Notes under the pieces: model-generated
What the model was told of the DNA's origin: nothing
What the model saw: the letters and a program-made list of their open reading frames with translations, nothing else
The model's database searches: none
Part shown: positions 2,952 to 56,395 of the stretch, piece after piece
Numbering within the stretch: the stretch's first letter is position 1
Layout of the letters: the number at the start of each line of letters is the position of its first letter
Translations under genes and position numbers: made by a program
NCBI GenBank assembly: GCA_934130005.1
Contig: CAKOXD010000001.1
Coordinates: forward strand, 78,897-142,896
Direction of reading: 5' to 3'
From: an uncultured Bacilli bacterium
Lineage (GTDB): Bacteria; Bacillota_I; Bacilli_A; RF39; UBA660
DNA length: 64,000 nucleotides

Positions 2952-3536
2952 ATGAATACTATAAATAACAATGTAAATAATGAGTATTTAATAAACAAAT
3001 CTAAATTTATATGTTACCTAATTAAAGTAGATAATATAAGTGATATTGATTATAATTTAAATTATTTAAAACAAAAATATAATGACGCTACTCATATATG
3101 TTATGCCTATATTATTTCAAACATAAAAAGATTCAATGATGATAATGAACCATCTGGTACAGCAGGAATGCCTATTTTAAATGTATTGGAAAATAATAAT
3201 TTAAATTATGTTTTAGCTGTAGTAATAAGATATTTTGGTGGTATTAAATTAGGTGCTGGTGGTCTTGTTAGAGCTTATACTAAAAGTGTTACATTAGCTC
3301 TAGATAAGACAAGCATAAAAAAAATAAATAAATGTCTAAGGATAAGTATATGTTTTAATTATAATGAAACAAAATTAATTGATAACTTATTAAAAGATAT
3401 TAATATTATAGATAAAAAATATGATGATAATATAATATATACTTTTATTATTTTAAAAGAAGATTTTGATAAAATTAATAATTTATTATTACTAAATAAT
3501 ATTAAAATAATAAAAAAGGAAGAAATTTTATTTTGA
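2952..3536 (+). CDS. yigZ: YigZ/IMPACT family protein (UPF0029)
   Basis: Conserved block PSGTAGMPILNVL...VVIRYFGGIKLGAGGLVRAYT typical of the IMPACT/YigZ N-domain. Confidence 0.8.
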   Translation: MNTINNNVNNEYLINKSKFICYLIKVDNISDIDYNLNYLKQKYNDATHICYAYIISNIKRFNDDNEPSGTAGMPILNVLENNNLNYVLAVVIRYFGGIKLGAGGLVRAYTKSVTLALDKTSIKKINKCLRISICFNYNETKLIDNLLKDINIIDKKYDDNIIYTFIILKEDFDKINNLLLLNNIKIIKKEEILF

Positions 3537-3674
3537 TTCTTCCTTTTTTTGTATCTTTTGTTCTTTTGTTTCTTCTTTTTTATTTAAATCTGGTAAAATT
3601 ATTTCTATTCCATTAAGATCACATAATTCATTTAAGTATTCTAAATTATTTTTTGTATCTGCTTTTAGTGCCAT
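3528..3674 (-). CDS. Small ORF (48 aa) translationally coupled to miaB
   Basis: GGAGGA lies 6 nt before an ATG at 3672-3674, and that Shine-Dalgarno sequence is inside the last miaB codons. The product is MALKADTKNNLEYLNELCDLNGIEIILPDLNKKEETKEQKIQKKEESK. It is below the 60-aa threshold of the ORF track. Confidence 0.35.
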   Translation of the reverse strand: MALKADTKNNLEYLNELCDLNGIEIILPDLNKKEETKEQKIQKKEESK

Positions 3675-13815: not shown

Positions 13816-15612
13816 TTAATTATCTTCCATTTTAAGTACTGATAAAAATGCTTCTTGAGGGATTTCTACATTTCCTACCATTTTCATTCTTTTTTTACCT
13901 TCTTTTTGTTTTTCAAGTAATTTTCTTTTTCTTGATACATCTCCACCATAACATTTAGCAAGTACATTTTTTCTTACAGCTTTTATTGTTTCACGAGCTA
14001 TTACTTTACTTCCTATACAAGCTTGAATTGGTACTTCAAATTGTTGTCTTGGAATTATTTCTTTTAATGTAGAAACTACTTGTTTTCCTCTATTGTATGC
14101 AAAATCTTTATGAACTATAATACTTAATGCATCAACTATATTTCCATTTAATAAAATATCCATTTTTACTAAATTTGATTCTTTATATCCTATAATTTCA
14201 TAATCAAATGAAGCATATCCTTTTGTATAAGATTTTAATTTATCAAAAAAATCATATACTATCTCTGAAAGTGGAATTTCATAATGAATATTTACTCTTG
14301 TTTTATCTAAATATTCAAGTGAAACATAATTACCTCTTTTATTTTGACAAAGTTCCATTATAGGTCCAATATACTCACTTGGAACAAATATATTTGTTTT
14401 TATATATGGTTCTTTTATATTATTTATTTTTACTTTTTCTGGCATTTTTGATGGACTATCAACCATTATATGTGTTTTATCTGTAAGTTCTACATCATAA
14501 ATAACAGAAGGAGATGTTGCAATTAAATCTATATTAAATTCTCTCTCAATTCTTTCTTCAATTATTTCCATATGTAATAGACCTAAAAAACCACATCTAA
14601 ATCCAAAACCTAATGCTTCAGAGGTTTCAGGAGAAAACTCTAAAGATGCATCATTTAATTTTAATTTTTCTAGTGCTTCTTTTAAATCTTCAAATTTGCT
14701 TGATTCGATTGGATATATCCCACAGAAAACCATAGGTTTCATTGGTTTATATCCTTCTATAGGTTCTATATTTTCATTAGCTTTAGTTATTGTATCCCCT
14801 ACTTTTACATCTTCTATACTTTTAATACTAGCAGCTAAAAATCCTACTTCTCCTGTTAAAAGTTCATCACATTTTTGTTCATATGGATTATGTACACCAA
14901 GTGATGTCACTTCATAAGTAGCTCCAGTTGCTATCATTTTAATTTTATCACCTATTTTAATTTTTCCATCCATTATTCTTATAGAAGTTACAATTCCCCT
15001 ATATGCATCAAAATAGCTATCAAATATTAATGCTTTAAGTGGATTTTCTATATTTCCTTTAGGAGCAGGTATTTTTTTTATTATTTCTTCTACTAATTCT
15101 TTTATTCCAATTCCGCATTTAGCACTTACAAGTAATATATCTTCTTCTTTAAATCCAAGTGTATCCATTAATTCTTTTTTTACCTTATCTATATCTGCAT
15201 TTGGTAAATCAATTTTATTTATTACTGGTATTATCTCTAAATTATTTTCAAGTGCTAAATATAAATTAGCAAGTGTTTGTGCTTCTATACCCTGAGCAGC
15301 ATCAACAACAAGTATAGCTCCTTCGCATGCCTTTAAACTTCTTGATACTTCATACGAAAAATCTACATGTCCTGGCGTATCTATTAAATGTAAATAATAT
15401 TCTTCATTGTTATATTTATATTTTAATTGAACTGCATTAAGTTTTATTGTTATACCGCGTTCTCTTTCTATATCCATATTATCTAATAATTGTTCTTTTT
15501 TTTCTCTTTCACTTACAGCTCCTGTTATATCAAGTATTCTATCTGCTAATGTACTTTTACCATGATCTATATGAGCTATTATTGAAAAATTTCTTATGTT
15601 TTGTTGTTTCAT
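13816..15612 (-). CDS. lepA: Elongation factor 4 (LepA)
   Basis: 598 aa. GTP-binding motifs AHIDHGKST and DTPGH are present, together with the LepA C-terminal domain. Confidence 0.95.
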
Positions 15613-15658
15613 GATATCACCTAATTCATTATATCACGGATATTTTTTTATGTAAATT

Positions 15659-15686
15659 AAAAAGAAAAATACCATTAAGGTATTTT
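15659..15686 (-). terminator. Terminator hairpin downstream of the pilin gene
   Basis: AAAAATACC-ATTAA-GGTATTTTT stem-loop directly after the pilin stop codon. Confidence 0.5.
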
Positions 15687-15689
15687 TTA

Positions 15690-16758
15690 CTAATTGATTT
15701 CCCATTCAGAAAAGAAGACGTAAGTCGCCTCTGGTCTTAACACATAGTTTCCTGGCTCAAAAGATATAGTTTTATAATTTTTAGTATTACCTGTACTGAA
15801 CTTTATATAAACTTCTTCAGAATTATCATCATTTACAGTACTAATTATAGCCGTATTTCCACTACTACCACCACTATCAGAGTAACGTGATCCAGAAAAC
15901 GATATTGTAATTGGTGTTTTAACTGTAAAGTATACATAGCAATTAACCATTTTATAAACAGAAAAGGCCTTTGTAAAAGAAATAAAATTAGTAGTATAAT
16001 CGCCATCAGTCAATCCTTCATATAACTTATTCATTAAATCTTTATCAGAAGATTCGACCTTTCCAGTACTTGCCTTTCCACCAAATGTTCCCTTAGTAAA
16101 TACAAGTGGCGCATCATCTATATTTACGGTTATAGCTACTTTTTTTATTGGCACATTATCTTTTGATATAATTATTTTTACTTTTCCACTCTTCTTAGCA
16201 ATAACAAGTCCATTTGAATCTACTGTAGCAATATTTTCATCACTACTTATATATGTATATCCATCCTCATGTTCTAATTGCAACCTTTTATACATTGACT
16301 TTTTTTGCACTGTTAATTTATTAGTTGAACATGTTCCAATTACATTTGATTTATTACTACTATATTCTATTTCATACCCATTTATACATAATGATGCATT
16401 TTCTACCTTTTTTTTACTTATTGTTACTGTTCCACTACTTGGTCTAGTTCCTTTAACATTGATACTATCTTCTATATCCAACACATCAATATCTTCGCCA
16501 TTTTCTATTAGTGGATATTTGTCTTTATTTATCATATTCATTGAATTATTATATTCAATCGCCTCTATATATCCATATGCACTATCTACTGCGGCACTTT
16601 TTCTTGCATCATTTATCATGTTTAATATTATTGGTGTTGCGATTAATGCAATGATTGCTAATATCACTATAACTGCAAGTAACTCTATAAGTGTAAATCC
16701 TTTCTTTAGGTTATCTAAATAACCCCCCCCCGAATTTTCTATTTGCTAACATAATCAT
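15690..16758 (-). CDS. Type IV pilin-like protein, out of frame at a homopolymer: an ATG and leader (MIMLANRKFGGG) lie in a different frame from the pilin body
   Basis: The pilin frame reads ...YLDNLKKG|FTLIELLAVIVILAIIALIATPII..., a canonical prepilin-peptidase site with the N-terminal hydrophobic helix. There is no in-frame start upstream of KKGF. The only nearby start is the ATG at 16756-16758, which lies upstream of the C9 run at 16723-16731 and is in frame only if the run were 8 or 11. The ORF-track CDS 15690..16667 starts at a GTG inside the helix. Confidence 0.7.
16723..16731 (-). repeat. Homopolymeric C9 tract (G9 in gene sense) in the pilin leader
   Basis: Nine consecutive C in a genome of roughly 25% GC, exactly between the ATG and the prepilin cleavage site. 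Confidence 0.9.
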
Positions 16759-16784
16759 ACCTACTTTCTATTTTCTACATATTA

Positions 16785-16813
16785 ATAATACAACAAAAAA
16801 TATCTTTTTGCAA
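16785..16813 (-). promoter_or_regulatory. Sigma-A-like promoter of the pilin gene
   Basis: On the minus strand, TTGCAA is followed by a 17-nt spacer and then TATTAT, about 25 nt upstream of the ribosome-binding site and ATG. Confidence 0.45.
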
Positions 16814-19986: not shown

Positions 19987-20063
19987 TGGTGACCAGTACG
20001 AGATTCGAACTCGTGAATGCTGCCGTGAAAGGGCAGTGTGTTAAGCCACTTCACCAACTGGCC
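19987..20063 (-). tRNA. tRNA-Glu (anticodon UUC)
   Basis: Cloverleaf GGCCAGTTGGTGAAGTGGC...CTGCC-CTTTCAC-GGCAG...TTCGAATC...ACTGGTCACCA. CCA is encoded. It resembles Bacillus tRNA-Glu. Confidence 0.85.
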
Positions 20064-20073
20064 AAAAAAAATA

Positions 20074-20149
20074 TGGCGCCTAATGTAGGACTCGAACCTA
20101 CGACCTGTCGGTTAACAGCCGAATGCTCTACCAACTGAGCTAATTAGGC
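20074..20149 (-). tRNA. tRNA-Asn (anticodon GUU)
   Basis: GCCTAATTAGCTCAGTTGGTAGAGC...anticodon loop CTGTTAA...GGTTCGAGTCC...ATTAGGCGCCA. Confidence 0.85.
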
Positions 20150-22016: not shown

Positions 22017-23480
22017 TTACCTCTTTTCTATTTCTTCTATGATCATACTTCTTGTCATAGCAGGATTTGCTTGTCCTCTTGTTTTTTTCATTACTTGACC
22101 TACTAAGAAATCAACTATATTTGTTCTACCATTTTTATATTGTTCTATAGAAGCTGGTTGTTCAGTTAATACTTCATTAATAACACTTAATATAGCACCT
22201 TCATCACTATTTTGTTTTAAACCTTTTTCTTCTACTATTTTAGTTGGTTCTTTTTCTTCAGTTAATGCAATATATAATACCTCTTTTGCTTGTTTGCTTG
22301 AAATATCTTTATTATCTACTAATTTGATTAAATCAACTAACATATTTGGTCTTAAAAATATATCATTTATATTTAAATCAAATTTATTTAAATGACCTAG
22401 TATTACACTTGTAATCCAGTTTGAACTTGCTTTTGGATTTGCACCTAATTTAATTGTTTCTTCATAATAATCAGCTACATCTTTTTCTTTTACAAGTATT
22501 TTAGCATCATATTCACTTATTCCATAACTATTTATATATTTTTCTTTTCTTTCATTTGCAAGTTCAGGAATAGATTTTCTAATTTCATCTAACCATTCTT
22601 TTGTTATTTTATATTTTGGAATATTTGGTTCTACAAAGTATTTATAATCAATAGCATCTACTTTACTTCTCATACGTATTGTAGTACCAGATTCTTCATC
22701 CCATCTTCTTGTTTCTTGAACTACAACTTCGTCATAATTTCCATCTTCTTTTGCATCCATTTGTCTTTCTATTTCAAAATTAATTGCATCTCTTACTCCA
22801 CCAAATGAATTGACATTTTTTATTTCAACTTTTGTTCCCCAATTATTAATATCTTCTGGATCTAAATTTTTATCCATTATTGAAACATTAACATCACATC
22901 TTATTTGACCTTTTTTGCTATCAGCTTCACTTATTCCAGCATATTGATAAATACTTCTCATAGTCTCTAAAAAAGATACTGCTTCATCTGCTGAATGAAA
23001 GCATGGTTCAGTAACAAGTTCAAGAAGTGGAACACCAGCTCTATTATAGTTAATTAATGTAGATGAACCTATATGTTCACTTGCTGCTGCATCTTCTTCT
23101 AGATGAAGATTATTAATCAAAGCAGTTTTCATCTCTCCATTACATTCATATTCAAGTTTTCCATATATACCAACTGGTGCTGGTTTAGTTTCTTGAGTAA
23201 TCTGAAATCCTTTTGGAAGATCTGGATAATAGTAATTTTTTCTTTCAAAATACATATATTCTGGTTGTTTACAATTTAAAATCATAGATGCCATAAGAGA
23301 TTTTTTTACTGCTTCTTTATTAACAACTGGAAGTGTTCCAGGAAACGCCATATCAACTGGTCTTATATTTGAGTTAGGAAGTTCTGTATACCCATTTCTA
23401 GCACTTGAAAATACTTTTGATTTAGTTTCACTAATCTCACAGTGCATTTCAAGTCCAATCATTACTAAATAGTTATCCAT
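22017..23480 (-). CDS. gatB: Asp/Glu-tRNA amidotransferase subunit B
   Basis: 487 aa. GatB motifs IGLEMHCE and NRAGVPLLE are present. Confidence 0.95.
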   Translation of the reverse strand: MDNYLVMIGLEMHCEISETKSKVFSSARNGYTELPNSNIRPVDMAFPGTLPVVNKEAVKKSLMASMILNCKQPEYMYFERKNYYYPDLPKGFQITQETKPAPVGIYGKLEYECNGEMKTALINNLHLEEDAAASEHIGSSTLINYNRAGVPLLELVTEPCFHSADEAVSFLETMRSIYQYAGISEADSKKGQIRCDVNVSIMDKNLDPEDINNWGTKVEIKNVNSFGGVRDAINFEIERQMDAKEDGNYDEVVVQETRRWDEESGTTIRMRSKVDAIDYKYFVEPNIPKYKITKEWLDEIRKSIPELANERKEKYINSYGISEYDAKILVKEKDVADYYEETIKLGANPKASSNWITSVILGHLNKFDLNINDIFLRPNMLVDLIKLVDNKDISSKQAKEVLYIALTEEKEPTKIVEEKGLKQNSDEGAILSVINEVLTEQPASIEQYKNGRTNIVDFLVGQVMKKTRGQANPAMTRSMIIEEIEKR

Positions 23481-24934
23481 TATTTAACCTCCTTTGCTAT
23501 TTGGTTTTTATAGTTCATTTTACTTTCTAGTGCATACGCAATATTAAGTACTGTTTGATCATTATAACAATTACCAGTAATATTTAAAGCAACTGGAAGA
23601 TTATCTATAAATCCATCTGGTATTGTAATTGATGGAAATCCACCAAAGTTTCCAACTTGTAAATGTTCTTCTAGGGCTGCTGTATTATCATCTAGTATAT
23701 CTTTTGATCCATCTAAATGTTTTGCAGGTCCACTACCAACTGGTAATATTACAGCATCATATTTTTGATAAAGCTTCTTCCATTCATCAACTAATAATCT
23801 TCTAACCCTTTGTGCATTATAGAAATATCTATCTTTATTTTGCTTTTGAAGTACATATGAACCAATTACAAATCTTCTTTTAATAAGTGGTGAAAATCCT
23901 TTTGTTCTATGATTTTTCATTTGTTCAATATATGTATTTCCTTCTCCCCTTGGACCAAAAATAAATCCTGTTAAATTAGACATATTGCTTGTAGCTTCAG
24001 CACATGAAATAACTACATAAACACTAGGTAGTGCATTAAGAAGTGTTTTATCAACAGATACTGCGTCAACTTCCATTCCAAGTTCTTTGCAAAGTTCTAA
24101 TTTCTCTTTGAAATTTTCTAAATGTTCTTTAAGCTCCTTACTTGCATTTGGATAATTTTCTATATCACATATTTCTTTTATATAACATAATTTTTTACCT
24201 TTAACATCTTTATTTAAATCTTTATATAAATTTATTTTGCTTGAATCCCAACTAGTCATATCATATTTGTCGATTCCTTTCATATTATCAACAACAATTG
24301 CAGCATCTTCTACACATCTTGATAATACACCTAAATGATCTAGGCTTGATGCAAAAGCAAATAATCCATATCTAGAAATCATTCCATATGTTGGTTTATA
24401 TCCGACAATTCCACAATATGCAGCCGGTTTTCTAATAGAGTCACCTGTATCTGATCCTGTTGCATAAGGATAGACTCCAGCAGCTACAGCACAAGCAGAT
24501 CCAGCACTTGATCCAGCACACATACGAGTTTTATCCCATGGGTTTCTAACAATACCAGTATGACCAGTTGTTCCAGTTCCTCCCATTCCAAATTCATCCA
24601 TTACAGTTTTATTAACCATAACAGCATTTGCACGTTTTAAATTTTCTATTGCAGTTGCATCAAAAAATGGTACATAATCTTTTAATGTATTTGATGAACC
24701 TGTAGATAAAATACCTTTGGTTGAATAATTATCTTTAACTCCATAAGGAATTCCGGATAATAAGTTATCTGTGACAATATCACCTTTAGCATCATCTAAA
24801 ATAGTAACAAATGCATTATATTTATCTTGTACTTCATGAGATTTTTTAAGTGATTCTTTTACAAGTTCATCACTAGTTACTTTTTTATTTACTAAATCTT
24901 CATGTAATTCTTTAATTGTTTTTTCCATATACAT
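23480..24934 (-). CDS. gatA: Asp/Glu-tRNA amidotransferase subunit A (amidase)
   Basis: Amidase signature GGSSAGSA and the GxSxG region are present. The start is likely the ATG at 24932-24934, 1 nt after the gatC stop and with an AAGGTGGTGGG ribosome-binding site. The ORF track extends to 24985. Confidence 0.9.
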   Translation of the reverse strand: MYMEKTIKELHEDLVNKKVTSDELVKESLKKSHEVQDKYNAFVTILDDAKGDIVTDNLLSGIPYGVKDNYSTKGILSTGSSNTLKDYVPFFDATAIENLKRANAVMVNKTVMDEFGMGGTGTTGHTGIVRNPWDKTRMCAGSSAGSACAVAAGVYPYATGSDTGDSIRKPAAYCGIVGYKPTYGMISRYGLFAFASSLDHLGVLSRCVEDAAIVVDNMKGIDKYDMTSWDSSKINLYKDLNKDVKGKKLCYIKEICDIENYPNASKELKEHLENFKEKLELCKELGMEVDAVSVDKTLLNALPSVYVVISCAEATSNMSNLTGFIFGPRGEGNTYIEQMKNHRTKGFSPLIKRRFVIGSYVLQKQNKDRYFYNAQRVRRLLVDEWKKLYQKYDAVILPVGSGPAKHLDGSKDILDDNTAALEEHLQVGNFGGFPSITIPDGFIDNLPVALNITGNCYNDQTVLNIAYALESKMNYKNQIAKEVK

Positions 24935-24935
24935 A

Positions 24936-25229
24936 TTATCCCACCACCTTTGGTACTTCAACTTCTCTATCTGTACAAACATCACAGTTAGAAAGTAAAT
25001 CTTCTATATCAATTGATTCTTCTACTTCATCTTCTCTAAGTTCAAACTCAAAATCATCTAAACAATGTGTCATTGGTTCTACTTGACTTATATTTGGTAT
25101 CTCGTTTATTAAATCGATATTTTTATCAATTATTTCAAATTCATCTAATACCATTTGATTTTCTTCTTCTGTTAAACCGATTAAAAGCTTTTCTGCATAA
25201 TCGTCTACCATTTCTTTAGTAAATTTCAT
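24936..25229 (-). CDS. gatC: Asp/Glu-tRNA amidotransferase subunit C
   Basis: 97 aa, acidic. It is first in a gatCAB arrangement. Confidence 0.8.
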   Translation of the reverse strand: MKFTKEMVDDYAEKLLIGLTEEENQMVLDEFEIIDKNIDLINEIPNISQVEPMTHCLDDFEFELREDEVEESIDIEDLLSNCDVCTDREVEVPKVVG

Positions 25230-25245
25230 ATAATCACCCTTTCAA

Positions 25246-25457
25246 TATAAAAAAGGATAGTACCTAAGGAGTGCTTATGCACGGTACCATCCTTTTATTT
25301 TCTTAATTAAATAACGGTATCAACCGAATATTCCTACTAATTTCAGAATATCAACTCCATGGTGTTTTTCATATTAAGCTTTTCTGTTAGTTCTCACTAT
25401 CCTAACTCACTTTTAGACAGTTTTTAATATTACTCTCCACTTCCCTGTTTTTAAAAC
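25246..25457 (-). ncRNA. T-box riboswitch leader of the gatCAB-aspS operon
   Basis: On the minus strand, the T-box sequence AAAAGGATGGTACCGTG (25280-25296) overlaps a 10-bp terminator helix, GGATGGTACC...GGTACTATCC, followed by a T-run. Stem I is upstream and carries AGUGAG motifs. Candidate specifier triplets AAC or GAU lie in the GUGAGAACUAACAG segment. Confidence 0.65.
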
Positions 25458-27261: not shown

Positions 27262-27338
27262 TGGTGATCCGTATGGGATTCGGACCCATGAATGTAGCCT
27301 TGAGAGGGCTATGTGTTAAACCACTTCACCAACGGACC
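27262..27338 (-). tRNA. tRNA-Glu (anticodon CUC)
   Basis: GGTCCGTTGGTGAAGTGGTTTAACAC...TAGCC-CTCTCAA-GGCTA...GGTCCGAATCC...ACGGATCACCA. It lies directly downstream of gltX. Confidence 0.8.
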
Positions 27339-34225: not shown

Positions 34226-34302
34226 TGGTAGCGAGAAAGAGATTCGAACTCTTGACCTATCGGGTATGAACCGATTGCTCTAGCCAGCTGAGCTATCTCG
34301 CC
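34226..34302 (-). tRNA. Elongator tRNA-Met (anticodon CAU)
   Basis: GGCGAGATAGCTCAGCTGGCTAGAGC...anticodon loop TTCATAC...GGTTCGAATC...TCGCTACCA. Very similar to Bacillus elongator tRNA-Met. Confidence 0.85.
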
Positions 34303-38185: not shown

Positions 38186-39049
38186 TTAACTTAATTTAAC
38201 ATATTTTTTATTAATCTTTATAACAGGTCTTATATAATGACTATCAGTTGTTACTGATGATGTAGCTAACGTATTATTATTTACATAATATGCTGAAGTA
38301 GTACCATATGTAGTACTTGTCCAATATTCACCATTTATCCATGTTTTATCTGCATCATTTACTATTGTTTTTATAACATTTTCGAATTCATCTTTTGTGA
38401 TTAACCTTTTTTCTGTTGCATAATTCCATGTATAATTTTCATTTAAAAATGTATCAATAGCATCTGGATTATCATTATTAGTACATGAAGTACACCAAGC
38501 TATTTTATTACTATTACTACTTGCTAATATACCAATTATGTAATTATCTCTTTCATCACTTTTTTCTATTACATAAAATTCACTAGTTTTTTTATCACCA
38601 ACAGTTACTAATACTTTATCTCCTATTTCATATTTTGTAAATTCTTGATCAATAACTTGATATTCTAATTTATTATTTTGTTTTTCTATTACAATTTCCA
38701 TTGTATCACTAAAAGCTTTCTTTGTTCTTACATTTTTTAAATCAGAATCTATATATCCACCATCTTGAAGATCTTTTAATGTAATAATTAATCTAGAATA
38801 GTTTTGACTACATTTGTCTATATCAGAATATAAGCACTCTACTTTTGTGTTACTAGAATTCGGAAGTATAGCTAAATTGTCAGAACCCCAGATTTTTGCT
38901 GCCGATTCAATATTTTTTATTTGATCATTATATAAATTTGTTTTATATTTTTTTAGCGATCCAGTTATTCCAGGAACTGTTACTAAAGCAATTAAAGCTA
39001 ATACAGTTAAAACAGCTAAAAGTTCTATCAATGTAAATCCTTTTTTCAT
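38186..39049 (-). CDS. Type IV pilin-like protein with a large C-terminal domain
   Basis: MKKG|FTLIELLAVLTVLALIALVTVP is a class III signal peptide with the N-terminal pilin helix. The start is the second ATG, with an AGGTGA ribosome-binding site. The ORF track begins 6 codons upstream. Confidence 0.75.
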   Translation of the reverse strand: MKKGFTLIELLAVLTVLALIALVTVPGITGSLKKYKTNLYNDQIKNIESAAKIWGSDNLAILPNSSNTKVECLYSDIDKCSQNYSRLIITLKDLQDGGYIDSDLKNVRTKKAFSDTMEIVIEKQNNKLEYQVIDQEFTKYEIGDKVLVTVGDKKTSEFYVIEKSDERDNYIIGILASSNSNKIAWCTSCTNNDNPDAIDTFLNENYTWNYATEKRLITKDEFENVIKTIVNDADKTWINGEYWTSTTYGTTSAYYVNNNTLATSSVTTDSHYIRPVIKINKKYVKLS

Positions 39050-39118
39050 ATTATCACCTATATACATAATATCAAAATAAATTTATATTTTCAAATATTT
39101 AAGTAAATATAATGTAAA

Positions 39119-48464: not shown

Positions 48465-48541
48465 GGACCTTTAGCTCAGTTGGTTAGAGCATCCGGCTCA
48501 TAACCGGACGGTCGTAGGTTCGAGTCCTACAAGGTCCACCA
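48465..48541 (+). tRNA. tRNA with CAU anticodon, probably tRNA-Ile2 (lysidine); not an initiator
   Basis: GGACCTTTAGCTCAGTTGGTTAGAGC...CTCATAA...GGTTCGAGTCC...AAGGTCCACCA. The 1:72 pair is fully matched, so it is not an initiator. The sequence is close to Bacillus tRNA-Ile(CAU). Confidence 0.7.
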
Positions 48542-48548
48542 TTTTAAT

Positions 48549-48632
48549 GCAGGTGTGGCGAAATTGGCAGACGCGCTAGACTTAGGATCTAGTGGTTAAT
48601 CCGTGGGGGTTCAAGTCCCTTCACCTGCACCA
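48549..48632 (+). tRNA. tRNA-Leu (anticodon UAG)
   Basis: GCAGGTGTGGCGAAATTGGCAGACGC...CTTAGGA...a long variable arm...GGTTCAAGTCC...CACCTGCACCA. Confidence 0.85.
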
Positions 48633-48645
48633 TTCATAAAAAAAT

Positions 48646-48670
48646 TAACCGGAAAGACGGTTTTTTATTT
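48646..48670 (+). terminator. Weak hairpin plus T-run between tRNA-Leu and tRNA-Gln
   Basis: AACCG-GAAAGA-CGGTT followed by TTTTTTATTTT. Confidence 0.3.
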
Positions 48671-48684
48671 TATCCTTTTTAAAT

Positions 48685-48758
48685 TGTCCTATAGCCAAGT
48701 GGTAAGGCAGTGGGCTCTGACCCCATCATCGTTAGTTCGAATCTAACTAGGACAACCA
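48685..48758 (+). tRNA. tRNA-Gln (anticodon CUG)
   Basis: TGTCCTATAGCCAAGTGGTAAGGC...anticodon loop CTCTGAC...GTTCGAATC...TAGGACAACCA. Confidence 0.75.
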
Positions 48759-48759
48759 C

Positions 48760-48833
48760 GCCGATTTAGTTTAATGGTAAAACAAATCCCTCGTAATGAT
48801 TAGATGTAAGTTCGATTCTTACATTCGGCACCA
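48760..48833 (+). tRNA. tRNA-Thr (anticodon CGU)
   Basis: GCCGATTTAGTTTAATGGTAAAAC...loop CTCGTAA...GTAAGTTCGATTCTTAC-ATTCGGCACCA. There is one acceptor mismatch and one anticodon-stem mismatch. Confidence 0.6.
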
Positions 48834-54868: not shown

Positions 54869-56383
54869 TTATTTTACACGAACTGTTTTAGTGTTTCCTG
54901 TATATTTATATCCTGCATTTAATAATTTTTTATCGTTATAAGTACTCCATTTTAAATCTACAGTTCCAGGTGTTACTATTTTCTTTCTAAATCTATAGAA
55001 AGTAGTTTTTTCACCTTTAGTAATTAAATCTCTATATCTATAATAAGTTGTAATTGTTGTTTTTGTTTCTAATTTTCTATATCTATAATAAGTTGTTGTT
55101 ACATCTTCATATACTGGAGTTGTTACTGTTTTTGTTTCATATCCTGTTAAAATAGTTCTATTTCCTAAGATAACTGTTTTTACAGTATTACGTTTAGCAC
55201 AACTATATGATGTAGATGTAATTGGTGTTCTTTGGTAAACTTTATAAACAAATGTTTTACCTGCTGTACAATTACCATCACAATACCAATTATATGTACC
55301 AACTAATTCATATCTTATTAATGCTGAACTTGTTTGTTTTGATGAGAATTTTTGCATACCAATATATGTTTCATTAAATCCAGATACAGTAGATGTTACA
55401 TTATATTGTGTACATGTTGTTACATTTTTTGAACCTATTGGTACTTTAATTGTTTCATATTTTGGTTTTGAGTAATCAGTTGTTGTTGTTTTAGTATTAC
55501 CTTTTAATACTTTTTTAGTTTCTGTTTTTGTTTCTACATCAACAGTATCAGATTCTTTTACTTCATTTGTTGACCATTCTGACCAGTTAGAATAAGTCTT
55601 AGTTGTTTTTTTATCTTCTTTTGTTTGAACTTGTCTTTTATCTGTTGCTTTTACTTCATTTGTTGACCATTCTGACCATGCAGTATAATATGATTCTTCA
55701 CTTGTTTCAGTTTTTGATTGAACTTCAACAGTATCAGATTCTTTTACTTCATTTGTTGACCATTCTGACCAATCTGTATATCTTGTAGTACCTGCTGTTG
55801 TTTTTTTGTATTCGTATAATGTATTGTATTTTGGAGTTACTTTTGTAGTTGTTTTTTTAGTTTCTGATTTATATATTTTAGAAGTTGTTCCTTTTTTCTC
55901 ACATAATTCTCCAGAACAATAATTATAACATCCTAAATGAACTAATAAGTAATTCTCTTCTTCACCACATTTTAAATTAACTTTCATAAGATATTCTTTA
56001 TCATTACTTTTAGTAATTTCAACATATGAAGAATCTAAATCACATTGTTTTCCATTTTTATCTGTAAATGGTAAGATTATTTTTTTATCAAGCATTTCTC
56101 TTAATGTTATTTTAGCAGTTGCTCCTACTTTTTGAGGTAATCTTTCATTTGTAAAATAACTTTGTGCTGCATCTTTCATATCATAGATGTTTTCATTAAA
56201 TATACGATCCGTTAATACTGATAAACCATCAGAATTATTTTTTGAATTATCAATTGATGAAACAGCTTTCTTTAAATCACTTTTCATTGGAAATAACCAA
56301 ATTAAGATAAATATAAATAAAGCTACGAATAAGAATTGTAAAATTACATTTCTCATTGAAAAATTGTTTGTTTCGGTATACAT
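54869..56383 (-). CDS. Membrane-anchored Thr/Lys-rich repeat protein
   Basis: An N-terminal transmembrane anchor is present. There are three tandem ~32-aa repeats of the form Y(T/S)xWSEWSTNEVK(E/A)(S/T)D..., plus Cys-rich segments. A G7 ribosome-binding site and two consensus promoters lie upstream. Confidence 0.55.
   Translation of the reverse strand: MYTETNNFSMRNVILQFLFVALFIFILIWLFPMKSDLKKAVSSIDNSKNNSDGLSVLTDRIFNENIYDMKDAAQSYFTNERLPQKVGATAKITLREMLDKKIILPFTDKNGKQCDLDSSYVEITKSNDKEYLMKVNLKCGEEENYLLVHLGCYNYCSGELCEKKGTTSKIYKSETKKTTTKVTPKYNTLYEYKKTTAGTTRYTDWSEWSTNEVKESDTVEVQSKTETSEESYYTAWSEWSTNEVKATDKRQVQTKEDKKTTKTYSNWSEWSTNEVKESDTVDVETKTETKKVLKGNTKTTTTDYSKPKYETIKVPIGSKNVTTCTQYNVTSTVSGFNETYIGMQKFSSKQTSSALIRYELVGTYNWYCDGNCTAGKTFVYKVYQRTPITSTSYSCAKRNTVKTVILGNRTILTGYETKTVTTPVYEDVTTTYYRYRKLETKTTITTYYRYRDLITKGEKTTFYRFRKKIVTPGTVDLKWSTYNDKKLLNAGYKYTGNTKTVRVK
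55520..55800 (-). repeat. Three tandem ~96-nt repeats inside the surface-protein gene
   Basis: ACTTCATTTGTTGACCATTCTGACCA recurs at about 55560, 55654 and 55746 with conserved flanks. Confidence 0.8.
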
Positions 56384-56388
56384 AAATA

Positions 56389-56395
56389 CCCCCCC
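56389..56395 (-). repeat. Homopolymeric G7 (gene sense) forming the ribosome-binding site of the repeat-protein gene
   Basis: AAAGGGGGGGTATTT-ATG. Seven G in an AT-rich 5' UTR. Confidence 0.8.

Follow-up and report, generated by a model that had tools for sequence, protein, structure and literature searches.

A probable poly-G phase switch in the leader-coding region of a modular pilin-like gene from an uncultured gut Bacilli bacterium

The locus described here raises the question of whether a gene whose start codon and body lie in different reading frames is broken, wrongly assembled or switched. The gene in question is located on the minus strand of a 64 kb stretch of DNA (the window; contig CAKOXD010000001.1 of assembly GCA_934130005.1) from an uncultured gut Bacilli bacterium. 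It encodes a putative type IV pilin, and a run of nine guanines (G9) separates the pilin reading frame from the nearest upstream start codon. Analysis of the locus and its homologs indicates that this is probably a modular pilin-like gene that is turned on and off through length changes of a hypermutable poly-G tract, situated in the region that encodes the cleaved leader.

Reading frames and the leader tract

The tract appears as C9 on the plus strand and as G9 on the coding strand (16723-16731), and is the longest run of G or C in the window, which has a guanine plus cytosine (GC) content of 24.3%. No other run of 8 or more is present, the runner-up being a C7 at 56389-56395, and none of 100 dinucleotide-preserving shuffles yielded a G9. 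The minus strand at the locus reads AGTAGGT ATG ATT ATG TTA GCA AAT AGA AAA TTC GGGGGGGGG TTA TTT AGA TAA CC TAA AGA AAG GAT TTA CAC. Translation from the ATG at 16758-16756 gives MIMLANRKFGGGLFR followed by the TAA at 16713-16711, where translation from the second ATG (16752-16750) also ends; the start frame is a dead end of 13-15 codons. The pilin frame is intact over 351 codons, being open from just past the TAG at 16748-16746 to the stop at 15692-15690, and reads QIENSGGGYLDNLKKG/FTLIELLAVIVILAIIALIATPIIL... (translation QIENSGGGYLDNLKKGFTLIELLAVIVILAIIALIATPIIL...), where the slash marks the prepilin cleavage site. It is offset by +1 from the ATG frame, and a tract of G8 or G11 joins the two; G7 or G10 meets the TAG, such that one in three tract phases is ON. 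The tract begins 19 nucleotides (nt) downstream of the ATG at 16752-16750. As assembled, with G9, the pilin leader lacks an in-frame start codon but would have one at G8 or G11, and an in-frame start is present in the homologous loci L009, L010, L011, L014 and L016.

An earlier, sequence-only reading had placed the tract between the start codon and the cleavage site, where it shifts the pilin out of frame, and had held that a tract of 8 or 11 would restore the fusion, that no in-frame start precedes the cleavage site and that a 9-nt G/C run is improbable by chance. The coordinates, translations, frame offset and shuffles bear this out, the first ATG, GTG or TTG of the pilin frame being the GTG at 16667, within the hydrophobic helix. 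The same reading had named the ATG at 16758-16756 as the start. That codon is present, and in the other frame as described, but the second ATG is favoured here, with a predicted 18-residue leader MLANRKFGGGYLDNLKKG, because of its alignment with the starts of homologs (MLANSK..., MVANSN..., MIANRK...) and its spacing from AGTAGGT. Class III signal peptides are distinguished by a hydrophilic leader that ends in Gly, with Phe or Met at +1 and Glu at +5 (PMC4471445). The class III site KKG proposed in the earlier reading has each of these hallmarks, the residues at -1, +1 and +5 in ...YLDNLKKG/FTLIELL being Gly, Phe and Glu, and the fused protein matches the Pfam family PF07963 N_methyl with 33.9 bits against a cut-off of 21.2.

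Tract length and leaders in homologous genes

Homologs were collected by protein search from metagenome assemblies; variants were then taken from 90%-identity protein clusters and compared as DNA. Three allelic groups emerged, 99.75-100% identical over up to 1.6 kb, in which the tract is the sole internal indel. In group A (3 mismatches in 1,350 bp), L010 carries G9 and is in frame (520 amino acids), and L012 carries G10 and is out of frame (475 amino acids, from an internal Met start). Group B (0-1 mismatch in 1,600 bp) comprises L011 with G9 and L016 with G12, both in frame and the latter with one extra glycine, together with L017 and L018 with G7, whose product occurs on 6 contigs. Group C (4 mismatches in 1,600 bp) comprises L013, which has G8, is out of frame and is called as a truncated protein of 463 amino acids, and L014 and L015, which have G10 and are in frame (511 amino acids). 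The called proteins are full-length or truncated in step with the tract phase: among the cluster variants, P0126 has the extra glycine (GGGG), P0124 and P0129-P0131 are N-terminally truncated, being called from the internal Met of ...LNMI..., and P0125, which starts MGGY, is found on six contigs. Since the tract is the only internal indel among near-identical alleles, its length must change far faster than point substitutions accumulate. As read from these alleles, tract length is what decides whether a full prepilin could be made, and at the level of sequence such polymorphism is the hallmark of contingency loci that switch by slipped-strand mispairing. The proposal of slipped-strand phase variation, first made from the window alone, thus gains support from near-identical homolog alleles with tracts of 7, 8, 9, 10 and 12.

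The earlier reading had treated a homopolymer sequencing error as an equal alternative. With an error of sequencing or assembly, the true tract would be G8 (or be followed by one T fewer) and the gene intact and constitutively in frame. G9 runs are prone to error, the window appears to belong to an assembled genome or metagenome-assembled genome (MAG), with a GTG-start product of 325 amino acids recorded at NCBI and ENA, and in L010 and L011 the sequence is TTC/AAT-G9-TAT, which lacks one base relative to the TTC-G9-T-TAT of the window. However, the same truncated product occurs on 3 contigs, albeit possibly non-independent ones, and L001-L003, from the closest relative, have the identical frame offset although they contain no long homopolymer. 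The homologous alleles stem from different samples and assemblers, and the length differences of 2-5 nt among them, reproduced across independent assemblies (L017/L018 and L014/L015), and the six-contig product argue against error. Given that near-identical alleles vary in tract length, error is a much weaker alternative for the phenomenon overall, and for the window's single allele it is accorded a small chance; were that allele truly G8, the tract would be a hypermutable switch all the same.

The family to which these genes belong is large. Approximately 6,400 clustered proteins have the N-terminal 130 residues in common, with identity of up to 77%, and their C-terminal modules are highly diverse, with LamG, FN3, LRR, ALK_LTK_GRD and DUF6273 among those carried by paralogs; all of the named members are from MAGs that bear the label Bacilli, Lactobacillales or Mollicutes. 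Among the best 120 hits, a short, MK(N)KKG-type leader occurs in 105 and one of 16-21 residues, M-x-[AT]-N-x-K-...-KKG, in 11. Of the latter, three (P0071, MFTNSKPGGGYLDNPKKGF; P0061, MVANSNFGGGYLKNTNKKGF; P0050, MVTNCKNGGGYLNNTQRKGF) nearly match the fused reading of the window gene, and the in-frame consensus in the homologs is M-x-[AT]-N-x-K-x-GGG-YL-x-N-x-KKG/FTLIELL. Since homologs encode the same leader in frame, the upstream ATG is taken as a genuine start and the G-rich stretch as coding. A protein search with the leader and helix returned mainly short partial proteins at contig ends, with a few extra G-leaders and no usable statistics. Many of P0133-P0252 are such partial prepilin proteins, of 49-121 amino acids and cut off by the end of a contig. 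Evidently, contigs are interrupted within the N-terminal module that this multi-copy family conserves, and copy numbers per genome are therefore probably underestimated in MAGs.

The tract is conserved as DNA. The genes of P0071, P0061 and P0050, which are distant homologs, each have an uninterrupted G9 in the same place as the window tract. It is read as GGG GGG GGG TAT in L010 and L011 and as CCG GGG GGG GGT TAT in L009, both in frame, and the occurrence of the same G9 in two codon phases indicates conservation at the nucleotide level. GGG accounts for 33 of the 836 glycine codons in window genes (3.9%), giving three consecutive GGG codons a P of ~6e-5, and the remaining Gly-Gly-Gly tripeptides of the window are encoded by GGA, GGT or GGC. 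In related loci totalling 97 kb, with a GC content of 24-30%, the leader tracts are the sole G/C runs of at least 7. Taken together, the retention of G9 across codon phases, the rarity of GGG and the lack of other long runs point to selection on the homopolymer itself and not on three glycines.

Three further observations concern the leaders of particular relatives. L010 (from 860) and L022 (from 1201) represent one gene in the same 90% protein cluster, with the Shine-Dalgarno context TAAAGGAGTGTAAA and a downstream prfB in common and with different upstream genes; the leader of L022 is short (MNQKNKKGF) and lacks the tract, whereas L010 has ~33 extra nt bearing G9. From this pair, the switch-bearing leader appears to behave like an exchangeable cassette. 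In L017 and L018 (~1001-1010), AAAT precedes the tract, and the ATG of AAATG, completed by the first G of the run, is a second start. At G7 (and G10, by inference) this start is in frame, with a 12-residue leader MGGYLNNTQRKG, and the long-leader frame is out; in the P0050 group two of the three tract phases would give prepilin, with differing leaders. P0214 and P0231 (MGGG...) look similar to this second-start form. Lastly, the P0050-group modular pilin (L011, also L016, L017 and L018) is a target of a diversity-generating retroelement (DGR). In L011 a 145-nt variable region at the 3' end of the gene (3164-3308) is 88% identical to a template repeat 307 nt downstream (3471-3615), the differences all fall at template adenines, and MutS_I-like, bAvd and reverse-transcriptase genes lie downstream of the repeats. 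This gene combines the poly-G switch with DGR hypervariation.

Selection on the pilin frame and competing explanations

The only close relative of the window gene (94% amino acid identity) is in a water-deer MAG, RGIG9051 (GCA_017936845.1; L001-L003), where the L001 gene reads ATG TTA GCA AAT AGT AAA ATC GGGGGAG TAT TTA GAT AAC CTA AAG AAA GGA. Its tract is exactly 3 nt shorter than G9, and the gene is therefore out of frame in the same phase. A DNA-pattern scan for more strains returned only RGIG9051 from genome contigs and, from metagenome contigs, three unrelated chance matches with a GC content of 33-42%. A more distant relative, P0132 (L019-L021), has ATT AGG AGA AGT TAT at the tract position, is in frame without a homopolymer and, on its sequence, is a locked-ON form; with L001 as a decayed OFF form, it follows that loss of the switch may fix the gene either ON or OFF. 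An IS30-like transposase open reading frame (ORF) with the inverted repeats ttgaaatttcaaccgcacc and ggtgcggttgaaatt lies at ~4780-5790 of L001, just upstream of the pilin promoter, and two contigs of RGIG9051 (JAGBES010000012 and JAGBES010000031) both carry the pilin-lepA segment.

Comparison of the window and L001 genes revealed a ratio of non-synonymous to synonymous divergence (dN/dS) of 0.197 overall, from 33 synonymous and 27 non-synonymous differences. The value is 0.02 over FTLIELL... and the next 20 codons (codons 16-60 of the pilin-frame alignment; 12 synonymous differences and 1 non-synonymous), 0.02-0.08 over the first 230 codons and 0.53 in the C-terminal third. The pilin frame has evolved under purifying selection. 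Moreover, since the conserved FTLIELL stretch lies upstream of every internal start, the gene must have been translated from upstream of the cleavage site during this divergence. Synonymous divergence (dS) from L001 is mosaic, being 0.54 for lepA (window 13816-15612), 0.12-0.17 for the pilin body and 0.53 for the helix region, which indicates that recombination or gene conversion has shaped the pilin gene and suggests, from sequence comparison, either that the pilin body was exchanged recently or that the 5' end of the gene underwent gene conversion. Within the C-terminal module the window and L001 differ in a patch of six adjacent residues (TKAFSVYK against TTYYYTYN).

These data bear directly on whether the locus is a fixed pseudogene, in which case the frameshift would be a dead end, the gene unexpressed and the G9 a leftover. 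Both known alleles (window and L001) are indeed out of frame, L001 combines a degenerate tract with the IS30-like element just upstream, and the patch and elevated dN/dS of the C-terminal third would be in keeping with relaxed constraint. A pseudogene is nonetheless considered improbable: the 351-codon frame is intact in both genes, where about one in ten random codons would be a stop (an estimate from base composition), and neither a dN/dS near 1 nor stops and indels in the body were found, the overall and N-terminal values being far lower. In addition, the promoter, Shine-Dalgarno sequence, start codon and uninterrupted G9 are all kept in the window, whereas an unselected G9 in a genome with 24% GC would be expected to decay, as it has in L001.

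Programmed recoding, by which the G9 allele would be expressed at a set low level through RNA polymerase slippage or +1 ribosomal frameshifting, is given a very slim chance. Transcriptional slippage on A/T runs occurs at about 9 identical bases, the G-rich, Shine-Dalgarno-like run lies 3 nt ahead of UUU AGA UAA in a manner reminiscent of prfB, and window and L001 both have the pilin frame at +1 to the start frame with TTT AGA TAA in common. Yet most tract-bearing homologs are plainly in frame, L001 lacks a long homopolymer on which to slip, and AGA, being common in AT-rich genomes, should not be a 'hungry' codon. The OFF alleles, furthermore, end differently and without a common slippery motif (L012, GGG GTA TTT AAA GAA TAC CAA TAA; L013, GGG TAT TTT AAA TAA). 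Three related ideas were rejected: a prfB- or Ty1-like +1 frameshift at UUU AGA UAA, because homologs are in frame and OFF alleles have no common shift site; a non-canonical or internal start, because no ATG, GTG or TTG lies between the TAG at 16748-16746 and the GTG at 16667, a start at which would remove the cleavage site and half of the helix; and a Shine-Dalgarno role of the G run for a start located 3' of it (an idea from the G7-TATTT-ATG at 56379-56395), because no in-frame start follows the tract in the window or in L009-L011.

The window allele is accordingly read here as a live phase switch caught in the OFF phase, because the gene has long been translated from upstream of the cleavage site and the G9 is still uninterrupted. 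Several points weigh against this reading. The tract of L001-L003 has decayed to G5AG and is not easily switchable, and the number of tract-bearing alleles known for the exact window locus is one. The selection signal in the helix may partly reflect gene conversion between paralogs, the 5' end of L001 resembling L019. All of the sequences come from metagenome assemblies, in which homopolymer lengths are less reliable, and a sample of homologs gathered by protein search is biased towards ON alleles. Finally, a Pfam scan of window ORFs, which covered about half of those of at least 100 amino acids, revealed neither a prepilin peptidase nor any gene for pilus assembly.

Encoded protein, precedents and genomic setting

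An AlphaFold2 model of the protein (mean predicted local distance difference test score, pLDDT, 76.9) has four parts, in which a beta-sheet domain with strands at residues 85-140 follows a 50-residue N-terminal helix (21-71, pLDDT 85-89). Type IV pilins have ~21 largely hydrophobic residues that make up the N-terminal half of a long alpha1 helix, and FTLIELLAVIVILAIIALIATPIIL together with the modelled helix conforms to this. A Foldseek search against the PDB was dominated by the C-terminal modules, the top 50 matches containing no pilin chain; the matches obtained included CBM32 modules (4lks, 2v72 and 4a41) and a Big_2-CBM56 structure (7quz), with a target template modelling score (TM-score) of ~0.5, which is moderate. 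From sequence and model, the gene product is predicted to be a modular type IV pilin in which an Ig-like Big_2 domain and a CBM32-like sandwich are added to the pilin module; Raynaud et al. 2021 (PMC8179133) define modular pilins by an N-terminal pilin module joined to one or more further domains that are not particular to type IV pilus biology, and the combination of N_methyl with extra Big_2, HL_N-beta and CBM-like modules agrees with this definition. The modelled folds suggest that it probably binds glycans, with galactose or mucin-type glycans as the candidate ligands.

The course of events may feasibly be as follows. The gene would be transcribed from its own promoter and its translation would initiate at the ATG at 16752, with slipped-strand mispairing during replication altering the tract by one or more bases. 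Alleles with G8 or G11 would yield the full prepilin MLANRKFGG(G)GYLDNLKKG/FTLIELL..., and those with G7, G9 or G10 a peptide of 13-15 residues. The ON prepilin would enter the membrane, where prepilin peptidase would cut off the 18-19 residue leader with its glycines; a change from G8 to G11 would add one glycine to the discarded peptide only. Because the tract lies within the leader removed by the peptidase, switching would cost the mature protein nothing. The mature pilin, of ~335 residues with its Ig-like and CBM-like modules, would then join a type IV filament and be displayed as an adhesin, probably at the filament tip. Beyond this locus, it is conceivable, though held only tentatively, that AT-rich gut Bacilli keep scattered modular pilins tipped with adhesins or lectins, a subset of them individually switched by a portable poly-G leader of ~33 nt and at least one group also DGR-diversified, as a combinatorial pilus-tip contingency system. 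No description of such a system in monoderm commensals was found in the literature.

The principle of gating translation from within the signal sequence, leaving the mature protein untouched, is familiar from the repeats of Neisseria opa (CTCTT) and Streptococcus pyogenes sclB (CAAAA), the latter a Gram-positive example; these are pentanucleotide repeats in regions coding for class I signal peptides, and the proteins are not pilins. Neisseria pilC is the closest mechanistic precedent, and PilB and PilC of Streptococcus sanguinis the closest precedent at the protein level. Poly-G phase variation of pilC1 and pilC2 in N. gonorrhoeae and N. meningitidis is known from Jonsson et al. 1991, as that work is cited in PMC13190605 and PMC5953494, and a table of the Neisseria phasome lists a pilC tract of G9-20 (PMC5953494). 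As proposed for the window gene, the poly-G of pilC is inside the signal-peptide coding region of a pilus-associated adhesin (PMC13190605), slipped-strand frame shifts toggle the protein and in-frame changes touch the discarded peptide only. PilC/PilY1, however, is not a pilin but a tip-associated beta-propeller with a class I signal peptide in a diderm, whereas in the window the tract is part of the class III leader preceding a pilin-type subunit of a monoderm, an uncultured gut member of the Bacilli with 24% GC. Furthermore, unlike that of pilC, the window-type tract recurs in a subset of a large family of paralogs, at ~1/10 among the best 120 hits.

The S. sanguinis modular pilins, PilB with a vWA module and PilC with a lectin module (PMC8179133, PMC9934059), resemble the predicted window protein in their monoderm host, class III signal peptide, small pilin module and grafted C-terminal modules that the filament presumably displays as adhesins, the extra modules here being Big_2 and a CBM32-like sandwich in place of vWA or lectin. 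Their genes are situated in a pil locus and encode a 7-residue leader, and no repeat-mediated switching is reported in PMC8179133 or PMC9934059; the window-type genes are instead single insertions by lepA, infB/rbfA and prfB, some with an 18-21 residue poly-G leader. Contingency genes of Campylobacter jejuni, Helicobacter pylori and Haemophilus influenzae are also alike in having G/C homopolymers of ~8-12 in the 5' part of surface-structure genes in AT-rich genomes (PMC3315296, PMC3068675), with tract lengths that vary among otherwise identical strains. They differ in belonging to diderm pathogens and in targeting mainly glycosyltransferases, restriction-modification systems and outer-membrane proteins. 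Full-text literature searches returned no description of homopolymer switching or pilin-leader tracts in pilin genes of Firmicutes/Bacilli. The principle is therefore known; what is new is the location (a class III pilin leader), the host (uncultured, monoderm, AT-rich gut Bacilli) and the sharing of the tract by a subset of paralogs.

Homopolymer contingency loci are textbook material for a few diderm pathogens (Neisseria, Campylobacter, Helicobacter and Haemophilus) and hardly documented in uncultured gut Firmicutes/Bacilli. The family offers a sequence rule for spotting phase-variable pilins in metagenomes, M-x-[AT]-N-x-K-x-(G)n-YL-x-N-x-KKG/FTLIELL, and reveals a recurrent annotation error, in that gene callers routinely record OFF alleles as 'Ig-like domain' proteins with a truncated N-terminus (P0001, P0124, P0129-P0131). 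If confirmed, stochastic switching of glycan-binding pilus subunits would represent a strategy for colonisation or for evasion of immunity and phage in commensal monoderms, and natural ON and OFF alleles would be available for probing the ligands of modular pilins.

The gene signals and protein features of the locus are listed in Table 1. A promoter of the same layout (TTGAAA-17-TAT(T/A)AT) is also present 5' of the homologous genes in L001, L011 and L019. Homologs also have AGGT/AAGGAG, equally spaced from their start. The pilin gene is flanked by lepA and by an unannotated ORF of 118 amino acids, upstream of which is spoIIP, and on these sequences the locus is apparently a single-gene transcription unit. 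An Rfam search found nothing near it.

Table 1. Features of the pilin locus (window coordinates)
Feature	Position	Strand	Basis or remark
Sigma-70-like promoter, TTGCAA-17 nt-TATTAT	16785..16813	-	9/12 matches; common in AT-rich DNA, weak alone
Shine-Dalgarno-like AGTAGGT	16759..16765	-	6 nt ahead of ATG 16752
Start region ATG ATT ATG	16750..16758	-	second ATG (16752-16750) aligns with homolog starts; first is 16758-16756
G9 homopolymer in leader-coding region, proposed slipped-strand switch	16723..16731	-	OFF at 9, ON at 8/11, OFF at 7/10
TAA closing the short peptide (13-15 codons) of the OFF phase, as assembled	16711..16713	-	frame translation
Prepilin cleavage site L-K-K-G/F	16695..16709	-	Gly -1 at 16700-16698, Phe +1 at 16697-16695; N_methyl match, leader rules (PMC4471445)
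Pilin reading frame, 351 sense codons and stop 15692-15690	15690..16745	-	predicted mature modular pilin ~335 amino acids
Hydrophobic alpha1-N segment FTLIELLAVIVILAIIALIATPIIL, Glu +5	16623..16697	-	translation, N_methyl, model
Ig-like Big_2 / HL_N-beta domain	16125..16262	-	PF02368 26.6 bits, PF21461 31.8 bits; model residues 147-222
C-terminal beta-sandwich, CBM32-type galactose-binding likeness	15693..15983	-	model residues 257-352; Foldseek
Terminator-like hairpin AAAAAUACC/GGUAUUUUU and U run	15658..15687	-	-8.2 kcal/mol, z = -3.2; directly 3' of stop codon
lepA promoter-like site	15656-15628	-	sequence match, next past hairpin

Members of the family are found as single-gene insertions beside core translation genes and outside pilus operons. 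That of L019 (5001-6137) is located between infB and rbfA, those of L010, L012 and L022 lie upstream of prfB and that of the window upstream of lepA. The window contains a second orphan prepilin gene (38186-39067, minus strand; MKKGFTLIELL..., N_methyl 29.2 bits, 293 amino acids), which has an ordinary short leader without a repeat and is located amid housekeeping genes. A T-box leader (25264-25454, minus strand) precedes by ~280 nt the GTG start of a GatA-like amidase-family ORF (23480-24985), and eight ordinary tRNA genes are present (19987-20149, 27262-27338, 34226-34302 and 48465-48833). The Shine-Dalgarno region of an ORF at 54869-56383 is formed by the G7 of the window (56389-56395; minus strand AAAGGGGGGGTATTTATG). 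This ORF encodes 504 amino acids with an N-terminal hydrophobic segment and WSEWSTNEVK repeats and has no Pfam match; the G run with its TATTT is similar to the context of the leader tract in L010 and L011.

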